Shown here piece by piece: positions 13,345 to 56,302 of a stretch of 64,000 nucleotides of DNA (positions are counted from its first letter, which is position 1; every line of letters starts with the position of its first letter). The translations under genes and the position numbers were made by a program. Source of the stretch: a virus (lineage: Duplodnaviria > Caudoviricetes); IMG/VR virus record IMGVR_UViG_3300005326_000040, positions 96,001 to 160,000 of that record; one strand, written 5' to 3'. The notes under the pieces are model-generated. The model made no database searches. It was not told where the DNA came from and saw nothing but the letters and a program-made list of their open reading frames with translations.

Positions 13345-13745
13345 ATACATACAAACCTCCTGTCGTAAAGGCTGTTTTCCTTGCCAATAAGGACAGCCAA
13401 CCTACAGTTGTTCAAATTCCATGGGAAGGCTGTAATGTTTCTAGGTTTATTCCTGACCGGGTAACAGTGTATCGTAAAAGACATTTTGGAAAAAATCTGT
13501 TTTTGTTTGTTAATTTTTCAGACAATCCATGTGAGACATACGCCCATCTGGAAAGACCCAAGGAAACAACAAATCTGTTTGGTTTGAACGGTCCTATTTT
13601 GTTTGTTAAACATGTTCCTCCATATGGAGATGTTGGATCTTTTGTTTGCGATGAGATTGCAGAGATTTTCGATGTTATTGAACGGCAACAAATCAGACTT
13701 GCTATTAGAAAGGATAAGAAGAAGAGTGAAACTGTGGCTGGATGA
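13341..13745 (+). CDS. DUF3846-like protein
   Basis: VKAVFL...PTVVQI...GPILFVK...SFVCDEIAEIF. Confidence 0.5.
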   Translation: MNTYKPPVVKAVFLANKDSQPTVVQIPWEGCNVSRFIPDRVTVYRKRHFGKNLFLFVNFSDNPCETYAHLERPKETTNLFGLNGPILFVKHVPPYGDVGSFVCDEIAEIFDVIERQQIRLAIRKDKKKSETVAG

Positions 13746-14052
13746 TCAGATTGATGACCCGAACACTCCTATGAGGCATCCTCCTGCTGGGTGGTTTGGT
13801 GTAAAGACCCCCAAGCAGGCTATCAAGCTCCTCAAGGCTGGAGGAGTTTCGGAGATTGAGCTTGACCATGACCTTGGGAATAATGTTTTGGGGGACGGAG
13901 CGACGGTCCTGAAGTATATTCAGAAGAGGGTTGTTTGGGACAAGAGTTTTATTCCGCCCAAGATGTTTGTTCATTCCGCAAATCCTGGTGAGGCGGACAT
14001 GATGAGAAAGATGATTAAAAGTATCGAGAGAATTATTGCTGAAAGGTGTTGA
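13726..14052 (+). CDS. cyclic-phosphate processing receiver (cREC-like) domain protein
   Basis: LWLDD..R.PP.GW....ELDHDLG...G..VL...HSANP pattern; GTG start. Confidence 0.75.
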   Translation: MKLWLDDQIDDPNTPMRHPPAGWFGVKTPKQAIKLLKAGGVSEIELDHDLGNNVLGDGATVLKYIQKRVVWDKSFIPPKMFVHSANPGEADMMRKMIKSIERIIAERC

Positions 14053-14055
14053 GAG

Positions 14056-14409
14056 ATGAGCGTTTATCGAGACAAGGCGGAGAACAATGGTTTTCCTGAT
14101 GCCCCTAAACCTCCTCCGCCGCAACCTCAGCCTGACCCACTTGCTAATCTGAGATGGCAACTAGCAACACTTGCACTTAGTCTTAAACCTTATTCTCATT
14201 TTTCGTATGATGAAGCCTTTGACGTAGCTATTTCTATTACAGACCCCCGATGCTGCGTTCTATATAAGTTCGACCATTTGCGCGATAAAATGTTTGAGCG
14301 CCTAGATGAAATTATGGAACAAGAAGAAACTCGAAAGCTTGCCAATGCTCCTGAGCCACGAAATATAGCTTACAGTAAATATAGAAAGGGATTGAGATTC
14401 AAGTGGTAG
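14056..14409 (+). CDS. hypothetical protein
   Basis: ORF in run. Confidence 0.7.
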   Translation: MSVYRDKAENNGFPDAPKPPPPQPQPDPLANLRWQLATLALSLKPYSHFSYDEAFDVAISITDPRCCVLYKFDHLRDKMFERLDEIMEQEETRKLANAPEPRNIAYSKYRKGLRFKW

Positions 14410-14582
14410 AAGTCGAGGACATTAACGATTGTATAAATTGCCACACCAAACGTGAAATTGTTTTATGGCACGAGACAATTAGAAAGTATTTCTTTCGATG
14501 TCTAATGTGTGGAAAGATTGGTCGTCGCGGCAAAACGATTGAAGAAGCTGTGGAGTGTTGGAATAAGGAAAATAGAGGTTGA
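14403..14582 (+). CDS. Lar-like (restriction alleviation family) zinc-ribbon protein, 59 aa, not in ORF track
   Basis: CINC...CLMCG..GKTIEEAVECWN; GTG start. Confidence 0.55.
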   Translation: MVEVEDINDCINCHTKREIVLWHETIRKYFFRCLMCGKIGRRGKTIEEAVECWNKENRG

Positions 14583-14651
14583 GCAGATAGCTTAAAGGAA
14601 GAGCGTCAACAAGGTTGATGGTTGTAGGTTCAAATCCTGCTCTGCTCACTA
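14581..14651 (+). ncRNA. tRNA-like RNA B (3-nt anticodon loop, A-CUA end)
   Basis: GAGCAGA TA GCTT AAAGGAA GAGC G TCAAC AAG GTTGA TGGTT GTAGG TTCAAAT CCTGC TCTGCTC A CTA. Confidence 0.8.
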
Positions 14652-15583: not shown

Positions 15584-15620
15584 ACCTATAAACCAGCATA
15601 AAGATATATAATAGGAGGTA

Positions 15621-15650
15621 ATGTTGCCATACCCTAATTGGTTTCATTAG
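15621..15650 (+). CDS. micro-ORF / leader peptide MLPYPNWFH
   Basis: AGGAGG RBS; sequence conserved with 15869-15895 through synonymous changes. Confidence 0.65.
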   Translation: MLPYPNWFH

Positions 15651-15672
15651 TTTCTCTAACAAGGAGATGCTA

Positions 15673-15861
15673 ATGGAATACGTGAGCAACAAAACATCGG
15701 GTCGTAGTTTGAGTCATAGTTATCTTAGGTACTTGACGCGCAAGCAGAAGACAGACTTGAAGCGTCAATGTAATAAGAGACGAAGGCTTCTAGCTAAGAA
15801 GGCCCTCCGGGCTGGAAAAGAAATCAAGCCCTATCGCATGTCGGCTGAATACTGGGACTGA
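15673..15861 (+). CDS. small basic (R/K-rich) protein 1
   Basis: AAGGAG RBS; KRQCNKRRR...SAEYWD. Confidence 0.8.
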   Translation: MEYVSNKTSGRSLSHSYLRYLTRKQKTDLKRQCNKRRRLLAKKALRAGKEIKPYRMSAEYWD

Positions 15862-15868
15862 GAGGAAG

Positions 15869-15895
15869 ATGCCATATCCTAACTGGTTCCTTTAG
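15869..15895 (+). CDS. micro-ORF / leader peptide MPYPNWFL
   Basis: GAGGA RBS; second copy. Confidence 0.65.
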   Translation: MPYPNWFL

Positions 15896-15915
15896 TTACC
15901 ATAAGGAGGTAGCTA

Positions 15916-16113
15916 ATGGAACGAATCAGTGTGAAGTATCAACCCATCCGTCACGATAAGCTTGACAAACGGATGACCCGTGGTCTTCCATGCAAGAGCG
16001 ATAACCTGCGCGAAGCCAACAGAAGGTTCCGTAGGGAAATGAAACGAATGCTAAAGGACTACGAAGATGATGCTGATGACCTTACTTGGGTATCAGCGGA
16101 CTGGATGTACTAA
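15916..16113 (+). CDS. small basic protein 2
   Basis: AAGGAGGT RBS; REANRRFRREMK...SADWMY. Confidence 0.8.
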   Translation: MERISVKYQPIRHDKLDKRMTRGLPCKSDNLREANRRFRREMKRMLKDYEDDADDLTWVSADWMY

Positions 16114-27770: not shown

Positions 27771-28488
27771 ACGGGATAGAATGTTGGTTCGGAATGGCAT
27801 TCTGCGCCATAGTCTTCTTGCTAAAAGGCTAGAGCAGCACGCAAATCGAAACGAATACGTTCATAAGTTGTTTGGAATTGACGCGCACAAAAGCGACGGA
27901 AGTTGTGAAAAGAAGCATGGTGGAACAGGTGGTTTGGAGTATAGTCCAACTTACGTAGAAGTTATTCTTTATATGGTTGATAAGCTTCACCTGACGCCCA
28001 AAGATACTTTTTATGATTTGGGTTCGGGCAGAGGCTTGGTTACCAATCTCGTTGGTTTGCTGACAAAAGCTCAGGTCAAAGGTATTGAACCTGTTCCTGA
28101 ATACGTAGACAATGCTCGTCGCGTTTCACGAGACCTTGGCATCACGAATGTTCGGACGATTCAACTCAAGGCTGATGAAGCTGACTATACAGATGGAACC
28201 GTATTTTATTGTTACAAGCCTTTTACGTATAATGTAATCAAAAAGGTTGCGGAAAAAATTAGACTAGAAACGCTGGGCAAGAACATTCGTATTGTTACCT
28301 TTCAAAATGATTTTGAATGGGTTCAGCTTGGATGGTTGCGTCGAACCAACAGCGCCTTCTTTAGACCTCCAGGTGACCCATTGGACGAAATGCTCAGTGT
28401 GTTCCAACCCAGGACGCCATCTGAACATGACCTCCCTAATCATCGTCCTCAATTGAAGAACAAAATTATTTATCCTAGCAAGAAATAG
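27757..28488 (+). CDS. class I SAM-dependent methyltransferase, DOT1-like
   Basis: YSPT..., FYDLGSGRG motif I, GIEP motif II, VFYCYKPF. Confidence 0.75.
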   Translation: MLILERDRMLVRNGILRHSLLAKRLEQHANRNEYVHKLFGIDAHKSDGSCEKKHGGTGGLEYSPTYVEVILYMVDKLHLTPKDTFYDLGSGRGLVTNLVGLLTKAQVKGIEPVPEYVDNARRVSRDLGITNVRTIQLKADEADYTDGTVFYCYKPFTYNVIKKVAEKIRLETLGKNIRIVTFQNDFEWVQLGWLRRTNSAFFRPPGDPLDEMLSVFQPRTPSEHDLPNHRPQLKNKIIYPSKK

Positions 28489-55249: not shown

Positions 55250-56302
55250 ATGGAACGAAAATTAGCTTCAATTCAAAAAGTATCTGAATTATTTCCAATT
55301 GAGGGCGCAGATAAAATCGAAGGATGTAGCGTCCTAGGTTGGCAATGTGTTGTTCAAAAAGGTGAATTCAAGCCTGGAGATATAGGAGTCTACTTTGAAA
55401 TAGACTCTGTTCTCCCTAGCGATAAACCTGAGTTTGCTTTTCTTGAGCCTAGAAAATATAGAATTCGCACTATCCGTTTACGCAAGCAAATTGCCCAGGG
55501 CTTAATGCTTCCCCTGAGCAAAATCACTTACGCCGATCTATCTTCCTTTCAAGAAGGCGATGACGTAACAGAATTGCTTGGGGTTCAGAAGTATGAACCA
55601 CCAGAAGAGAGTGAAGACGGAGCCAACTTCCGTTCTCGTCGGCGAGGAGTCTTTCCTTCTTTCCTTAGAAAGACTGATGAATTAAGAATTCAAAGTGTTC
55701 CAGGTTTTCTAGACCGTCATCGTGGTAAGACTTTTTATGCTACTGAAAAGGTGGATGGAAGCTCAGTTACGCTTTTCTATCTTCAAGATGCTTTATACGG
55801 GAAAGAGTCGGGATACTTTGGCGTTTGTTCTCGTAACATGGAAGTAATGAAAGATGACGGCGACTCTTATCGCAATGCTTTTTGGGAAGCCGTAGAGAAT
55901 TTTGATTTGGAAAACAAGATAAAATCCCTTGGTGCAAACATTTGTGTACAAGGCGAGCTTGTAGGTACAGGTATTCAAAAAAACAAATACAAGCTAACAG
56001 ATAGAAAGATTTTCTTATACAGTGCTTATGACGTTGTAACACAACGTTACATCAATCGCGATAGCTTGGTGCAGATAGCAAACGCTTTAGGTCTTGACAC
56101 GGTTCCGATGTTGGGTGAATTTGTTTTGAATCATACGGTTTCAGAGCTTGTGGAGATGTCTAGAGGATATAGCAAGCTCAATCCTGCAACGTTGCGAGAA
56201 GGAATTGTTTGTCGGCCTATTGAGGAATGCGGTGACCCTGAAACTGGACGAGCCAGTTTCAAAGCTATCCAGCCAGAATTTCTTTTAAAGTACGCTGAAT
56301 GA
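55250..56302 (+). CDS. RNA ligase, DRB0094/Rnl2 family
   Basis: RKLASIQ...IEGAD.I, TEKVDGSS, CSRN, QGELVG.GIQ.N.Y, REG.V, FKAI. Confidence 0.92.
   Translation: MERKLASIQKVSELFPIEGADKIEGCSVLGWQCVVQKGEFKPGDIGVYFEIDSVLPSDKPEFAFLEPRKYRIRTIRLRKQIAQGLMLPLSKITYADLSSFQEGDDVTELLGVQKYEPPEESEDGANFRSRRRGVFPSFLRKTDELRIQSVPGFLDRHRGKTFYATEKVDGSSVTLFYLQDALYGKESGYFGVCSRNMEVMKDDGDSYRNAFWEAVENFDLENKIKSLGANICVQGELVGTGIQKNKYKLTDRKIFLYSAYDVVTQRYINRDSLVQIANALGLDTVPMLGEFVLNHTVSELVEMSRGYSKLNPATLREGIVCRPIEECGDPETGRASFKAIQPEFLLKYAE

Follow-up and report, generated by a model that had tools for sequence, protein, structure and literature searches.

Genomic context of the locus

Two small genes for basic proteins stand in tandem in a 338,055-bp phage genome from IMG/VR (estimated completeness, 97%), and each is preceded by a micro-ORF and by a predicted hairpin that reaches over the start of the gene (Table 1). 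The window analyzed here is a stretch of 64,000 nucleotides, bases 96001-160000 of that record, and positions are those of the window except where genome positions are named. The genome has a GC content of 41.6%, carries nearly all of its genes on the + strand and includes terminase and portal genes. No close cultured relative was found: TerL shares at most about 24% identity with Bacillus phage terminases, and megablast against cultured phages gave no match. The source DNA sample, a groundwater metagenome, is the sole public run with the locus, and at its low depth this run contains no variants there.

The standard code (code 11) applies to the phage. Stop-to-stop frames of at least 100 codons fill about 90% of each 20-kb segment under code 11, and TAG is the terminal codon of 106 of 436 long ORFs (24%); on these grounds stop-codon recoding was rejected. 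ARAGORN reports a tRNA with anticodon UUA (an ochre suppressor, "tRNA-Stop") outside the window at genome positions 28046-28121, as one of a cluster of tRNA genes (Pro, Asp, Lys, Sup); even so, code 11 fits well in each 20-kb segment. In both micro-ORFs an in-frame TAA lies two codons past the TAG.

Several features of the surrounding region suggest a theme of RNA repair or processing. These include a cREC_REC domain (cyclic-phosphate processing receiver; 13603-14052, E 3e-20), a weak Lar-like zinc-finger match (14403-14582), an RNA ligase with a PHA02142 OB fold (55250-56302, E 3e-30) and a tRNA-like gene (14581-14649) that scores 54.5 bits with the Rfam tRNA model and is called by ARAGORN as a 69-nt tRNA-Leu(aag). 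The leader module follows 1 kb downstream of the tRNA-like gene, and the variable codon of the second micro-ORF is CTT.

Table 1. Features of the two leader units, with positions in the window.
Feature	Position	Strand	Description
GATATATAAT, promoter-like -10 box (tentative)	15603..15612	+	directly before the SD of micro-ORF 1
SD of micro-ORF 1	15613..15618	+	AGGAGG, followed by TA and then ATG; read from the sequence
Micro-ORF 1	15621..15650	+	ATG TTG CCA TAC CCT AAT TGG TTT CAT TAG (MLPYPNWFH; from TTG 15624, MPYPNWFH)
Hairpin 1 (predicted)	15641..15679	+	16 pairs, -17.9 kcal/mol
Gene 1	15673..15861	+	62 aa, pI 10.5, predicted long helix at residues 15-47
SD-like run of micro-ORF 2	15862..15868	+	GAGGAAG (GAGG at 15862-15865); read from the sequence
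Micro-ORF 2	15869..15895	+	ATG CCA TAT CCT AAC TGG TTC CTT TAG (MPYPNWFL)
Hairpin 2 (predicted)	15886..15922	+	14 core pairs, about -19.3 to -19.6 kcal/mol
Gene 2	15916..16113	+	65 aa, pI 9.25, predicted long helix at residues 28-64

Two related micro-ORFs precede the basic genes

A first-pass annotation of this DNA had described two tandem micro-ORFs that encode PYPNWF, differ within it by synonymous changes, end in TAG and lie close to the starts of small basic genes with strong ribosome-binding sites. Direct reading of the sequence bears this out. The three differences inside PYPNWF are third-position C/T exchanges and all synonymous, while a fourth, CAT to CTT, replaces His by Leu. Both frames end in TAG, 22 nt before the ATG at 15673 and 20 nt before the ATG at 15916, and the downstream genes have strong SD sequences at a spacing of 6 nt (AAGGAG, 15661-15666, for gene 1; a perfect TAAGGAGGT, 15902-15910, for gene 2). 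The SD of micro-ORF 2 follows directly on the TGA of gene 1 (15859-15861), and the frame itself starts 7 nt past that stop.

In the 338-kb genome the motif is present at these two places only, with no third copy even in a fuzzy six-frame search of the full sequence; 0.26 matches with at most three mismatches are expected in the window. Nucleotide similarity between the two units is limited to the 28-nt leader (86%, E 0.003) and a co-linear 10-mer, GCTAATGGAA, and the coding regions of the units share none. The two proteins have borderline similarity (P = 0.014-0.028 against shuffles), and both are predicted to be single long basic helices with aromatic and acidic C-termini. The arrangement would reflect either an old duplication or two separate recruitments of the leader; whichever holds, coding similarity is lost while the leader is kept, and we therefore consider the leader to be under constraint.

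The alignment of the two leaders places the ATG of copy 2 opposite TTG 15624 of copy 1, and not opposite ATG 15621. This TTG stands 6 nt from GGAG, a spacing typical for the genome (the genome-wide peak is 5-9 nt after GGAG), and 5 nt from the end of AGGAGG, while ATG 15621 and ATG 15869 are only 2-3 nt from their SD cores. Each micro-ORF has a putative ribosome-binding site of its own, as cat/erm-type leaders do, with a spacing that is sub-optimal except for TTG 15624. The similarity between the copies sets in exactly at the aligned start codon (TTG/ATG), and an SD-like purine run is present upstream in both, in flanks that otherwise cannot be aligned. From the aligned start, both copies have eight sense codons, an intact frame and the same stop position. 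Under loose criteria, 56 of 334 genes have an SD-preceded short ORF near their start, a common, chance-level occurrence and a count inflated by the C-termini of upstream genes.

The 8-mer GATATATA is found at 15603-15610 and at 37 more genomic sites, upstream of candidate genes and tRNAs. It is enriched 7.5-fold in the 85 nt upstream of the 334 candidate genes (12 of the 38 genomic copies), and some copies follow TTGACA at about 13-17 nt, several with CTAGG between. We conclude that GATATATA is likely a -10 motif of phage promoters. At GATATATAAT itself no good -35 was found, and the site was not called in a simple sigma-70 scan. Because the GATATATAAT box adjoins the SD of micro-ORF 1 and the 8-mer is enriched upstream of genes, the transcript of unit 1 may, tentatively, begin with this unit.

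Predicted hairpins over the downstream starts

In both units the second half of the micro-ORF is predicted to pair with the start of the basic gene. The 5' arm of hairpin 1 consists of the G of TGG, TTT, CAT, TAG and 7 more nt, and its 3' arm of GGAGA (SD) and GCUAAUGGAAU; the AUG of gene 1 lies within the stem, with a pairing probability of 1.0 in the predicted fold. Hairpin 2 has the arms GG TTC CTT TAG TTACC (5') and GGUAGCUAAUGGAAC (3'), and the 45-nt fold adds an outlying U-A pair, 15884-15924. Here the fold places the AAGGA of the SD in the loop and pairs only two nucleotides of the AUG, its A and its G, leaving the U unpaired. With most of the SD in the loop and the U free, locking of copy 2 as modeled may be incomplete.

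The layout is common to the two copies. The 5' arm runs from the G of TGG through TT(T/C), C(A/T)T and TAG and then for 5-7 nt, and the 3' arm comprises the SD region and GCUAAUGGAA(U/C), which is the start and second codon of the basic gene. The TAG itself is predicted to pair with the CUA just before the downstream AUG. The register is identical as well: the nucleotide at x from the T of TAG pairs with the nucleotide at (-1-x) from the A of AUG, despite the 2-nt difference in the distance from TAG to AUG. A pair-by-pair comparison of the copies shows compensatory changes on both sides of two pairs (+5/-6, U-A to A-U; +7/-8, U-A to C-G), changes on one side that preserve the pair in two others (G-U to G-C, U-G to C-G), one pair lost (A-U to U.U, through CAT to CTT) and one gained. 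What the analysis itself shows is the sequences, the predicted fold that both copies conserve, and its geometry.

The two elements (43-45 nt) each have a z-score of -5.8 against shuffles, none of which was equally stable. When the 334 SD-bearing candidate starts of the genome were folded from -38 to +10 (mean -6.0, sd 3.5 kcal/mol), hairpins 2 and 1 ranked second (-19.6 kcal/mol) and third (-17.9 kcal/mol) in stability. The first-pass annotation had proposed a pairing of TTCCTT with AAGGAG in copy 2; at -4.0 kcal/mol, against -19.6 for the predicted hairpin, this pairing is not dominant. Placing a ribosome-footprint mask on the last codons of the micro-ORF in constrained folds left only weak alternative structure near the downstream start. 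Rfam holds no match at the element at E values up to 1.

Other roles for a structure at this position were considered and rejected. An intrinsic terminator is disfavored, as the hairpins lack a U tract behind them and no terminator was called there, and no promoter-like motif lies between the hairpin arms that would make a late promoter like those of T4 e and soc. A short coding stretch whose stop codon directly follows at the foot of a stem-loop recalls the T4 gene 60 bypass and the prfB +1 site, and the CUU UAG of copy 2 resembles the prfB frameshift site, CUU UGA. By sequence reading there is no matching landing codon in range for a bypass of the gene 60 type. A +1/-1 frameshift fusion was likewise discarded: the frame of gene 2 is closed by TAG 15910, copy 1 reads CAU UAG, and no fusion is available in both copies.

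Structured starts were also seen elsewhere in the genome, outside the window. At genome positions 239650-239700, 222640-222690 and 73720-73770, small genes (67-78 aa) have their SD in an anti-SD hairpin (UCCUCC...GGAGG and similar), none with a comparable micro-ORF; the first of these hairpins is the most stable start structure in the genome. At genome positions 255361-255400, a GATATATA box is followed at once by the hairpin CCAUACGAA-GGAGAUUU-UUCGUAUGG, whose loop contains the SD and whose stem includes the AUG; no micro-ORF is present. The gene behind it encodes a very basic protein of 105 aa (RRRRKQR...), another structured start before a basic protein.

Homologue searches

The search for PYPNWF micro-ORFs in other genomes that the first-pass annotation had suggested returned only chance matches from the viral (IMG/VR) and metagenome collections. 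A degenerate PYPNWF pattern gave four chance matches inside longer frames among the viral contigs, and three matches among the metagenome contigs: one at the C-terminal end of a long ORF, one in a remnant of that end, and one by chance. The long ORF ends in ...KGLPYPNWF* in metagenome contig L007 (120-145), with the remnant in contig L009 (3327-3352); from its sequence it is taken to be cysteine-synthase-like, and we judge its PYPNWF end to be a chance match unrelated to the phage element. A scan with a hairpin-based pattern produced 23 chance matches inside coding regions.

The basic proteins are orphans in the collections searched. Both were compared with related loci, with an index of 5.8 billion proteins and, by tblastn, with cultured phages, and these searches returned the query itself or nothing. 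A phmmer search of 1.84 billion representatives found no homologue of the gene 1 protein, and no relatives were found for the flanking proteins of 277 aa and 122 aa. Relatives of TerL are encoded on four contigs (51-60% identity), three of which are short fragments without the module; the only sizeable one is a 244-kb contig whose TerL is 51% identical.

A candidate translational switch

In both copies, the SD and start of the basic gene are predicted to be sequestered by a stem-loop, and the leader overlaps the 5' arm, which begins at the G of TGG and contains the TAG. Both are features of cat/erm-type leaders. The occluding structure is combined with a short distance from stop to start (22 and 20 nt), the stop lying inside the stem, as is expected of translationally coupled genes. 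This conserved hairpin, together with a layout of the coupling or attenuation kind, is why we read the unit as a putative switch that depends on its leader ORF and was duplicated with its gene. With moderate confidence, and on the basis of the modeled folds, we favor the view that each unit is a leader-ORF translational switch in which translation of the micro-ORF would unlock the next basic gene.

On the naked mRNA, the SD and AUG of the basic gene would be locked in the 3' arm of the hairpin. A ribosome with its P site at the last two codons of the micro-ORF would cover or unwind the whole 5' arm, and the opened SD and AUG, 20-22 nt away, could then serve a new 30S subunit or the terminated ribosome as it re-initiates. 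The basic proteins would thus be made only when, and in proportion as, the leader is translated. We infer here both that the micro-ORFs are translated and that their translation opens the hairpin. Because micro-ORF 2 begins 7 nt past the stop of gene 1, the four frames could form a relay from micro-ORF 1 to gene 1, micro-ORF 2 and gene 2. In copy 2, translation of gene 1 alone could in principle do the unlocking with no micro-ORF.

Both routes have precedent. Coupling by RNA unfolding and coupling by re-initiation are established, unfolding has been explicitly likened to translation attenuation, and distances of 22 and 20 nt from stop to start are within the range where both operate (reviewed in PMC12548453). 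The first-pass annotation had seen in the micro-ORF a ribosome-sensing leader peptide that switches on the basic proteins. The part of that proposal in which a short upstream ORF controls the basic gene in cis is backed by the conserved hairpin over the SD and AUG, while peptide-specific sensing found no support.

Comparison with known systems

Much is known of leader-ORF switches in bacterial resistance and amino-acid operons; in large phages they are, to our knowledge, rarely documented. The leader of cat-86 has nine codons. In cat-86 and ermC, a short leader ORF is combined with a stem-loop that sequesters the RBS and has its 5' arm inside the leader (as summarized in PMC4191407). The phage leader resembles those of cat-86, cmlA and ermC in overlapping the 5' arm, where a ribosome that is held frees the RBS (PMC4191407, PMC12548453). 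Whereas the cat/erm systems are defined by an inducer and a stall, the phage leader is known here from its sequence and predicted fold. Its peptide is unrelated to theirs, its stop codon lies inside the stem, and it occurs in a jumbo phage, in two tandem copies with orphan basic proteins downstream. In contrast to the four-segment design of ermC, it has a single hairpin.

A second likeness is to coupled genes such as MS2 coat-lysis, f1 genes VII-IX and rpmI-rplT, in which a start is silenced by a structure that includes upstream coding sequence (PMC12548453). As in coupled genes, the stop lies a short way before the next start and the downstream gene has an SD (PMC12548453). In coupled protein genes the upstream cistron encodes a protein, whereas here it is a frame of 8-9 codons that seemingly serves coupling only, and its sequence is conserved between the copies beyond the needs of the hairpin.

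With TnaC and PepNL the phage leader shares a short upstream ORF, Trp and aromatic residues near the C-terminus and a stop that is possibly regulatory (PMC11890864; PMC8450073). Described termination-arrest peptides stall at UGA with RF2 (PMC11890864), whereas the phage stop is UAG, which is explained by base pairing, and the penultimate position is not conserved. The type of control proposed here is therefore already known; what would be new is a member in a phage, in two diverged copies with compensatory changes.

Alternative explanations

How much of the leader the hairpin explains bears on whether the peptide matters. The hairpin accounts for conservation from the G of TGG onward, the TAG included, and TTT to TTC, a synonymous change, also turns a U-G pair into C-G. 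Outside the stem it leaves 15-17 nt unexplained, (A/T)TG CCA TAY CCT AAY TG, where the copies differ at two third positions only. In an arrest-peptide explanation, nascent MPYPNWF(H/L) stalls the ribosome late in the ORF or at the RF1-read TAG, and the hairpin is held open so that the basic protein is induced, as in control of the cat-86, cmlA, ermC or TnaC/PepNL type; possible triggers would be a ligand, the supply of tRNAs, the activity of RF1 or a host defense aimed at ribosomes. The geometry would allow this: the footprint of a ribosome whose P site holds the Asn or Trp codon would mask the outer portion of the 5' arm, the one paired to the AUG, and would still leave 7-10 nt (copy 1) or 4-7 nt (copy 2) between its leading edge and the SD. 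Arrest is known for peptides of 5-14 residues (PepNL, 14 aa, PMC11890864; the cat-86 leader, PMC4191407), Pro, Trp and other aromatic residues are abundant in this peptide, and the 15 nt for PYPNW, which lie outside the hairpin, are 87% conserved with all changes synonymous.

The same nucleotides also speak against it. Four random substitutions (3 transitions, 1 transversion) in 24 nt leave the frame intact with at most one amino-acid change at P of about 0.04, a value for a frame picked post hoc from six, and selection on the micropeptide sequence is thus weakly supported. The four-fold Pro sites are identical in both copies, which hints at constraint on the nucleotides and not on the peptide. 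W and F are common to the two sequences at hand, while the residue adjoining the stop is His in one and Leu in the other. The first-pass annotation had stressed that both frames end in a codon read by RF1 only; the TAG is accounted for by its pairing with CUA, so its conservation needs no RF1 logic, and TAG also ends 24% of long ORFs. The peptide has no similarity to any described arrest peptide, and PYPNWF is absent from the literature searched. The phage tRNA set covers 7 of the 8 residue types of the micro-ORF, which is not a significant link (hypergeometric P ~0.1). We regard arrest by the nascent peptide as unlikely. Its fuller form, a very short arrest peptide that senses the translation state of the host, be it the activity of RF1, a small molecule, the supply of tRNAs or a defense directed at ribosomes, and that unlocks two basic effectors in relay, seems quite unlikely.

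It is similarly doubtful that the element is an untranslated RNA operator, in which the hairpin represses and the 5' box CCAUAYCCUAAYUGG binds a protein or RNA that opens or stabilizes it, for instance the basic helical proteins themselves (autoregulation). The support for the hairpin is independent of translation, both four-fold Pro codons are unchanged, the SD spacing of the micro-ORFs is sub-optimal, and nucleic-acid binding is plausible for products modeled as small, basic single helices. An operator of this kind would leave unexplained, however, that similarity sets in exactly at the start codon, that neither copy has lost its start, frame, length or stop, and that the SD-like run is retained in otherwise unalignable flanks. 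The changes in the 5' box are all on third codon positions, and no further copy of the box occurs in the genome to hint at a regulon.

We consider it very improbable that the micropeptide is itself the product, signaling or inhibitory, with an incidental hairpin. The synonymous pattern of changes would fit such a peptide, but 8-9 residues cannot hold an export or processing signal, no homologues occur in the collections searched, and half of the ORF takes part in a structure that includes the next gene's start codon; a trans-acting bioactive peptide is without support. That the similarity is a functionless, neutral remnant of a recent tandem duplication, or chance, is hardly credible: there are only two copies and they are adjacent, yet downstream coding similarity is all lost against 86% in the leader, compensatory changes maintain the hairpins, and these are extreme outliers in the genome.

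Implications

What a leader-dependent switch at this locus would represent depends on the peptide. Should its sequence be irrelevant, the units would be an ordinary coupling device, and the main gain would be in annotation, with two unannotated micro-ORFs and a regulatory hairpin; should it have a role of its own, they would contain a new minimal arrest sequence. The architecture, with a stop codon in the stem and the next start in the other arm, can be read in two diverged copies. The locus may be a compact example of a jumbo phage gating small orphan basic proteins on ongoing translation.
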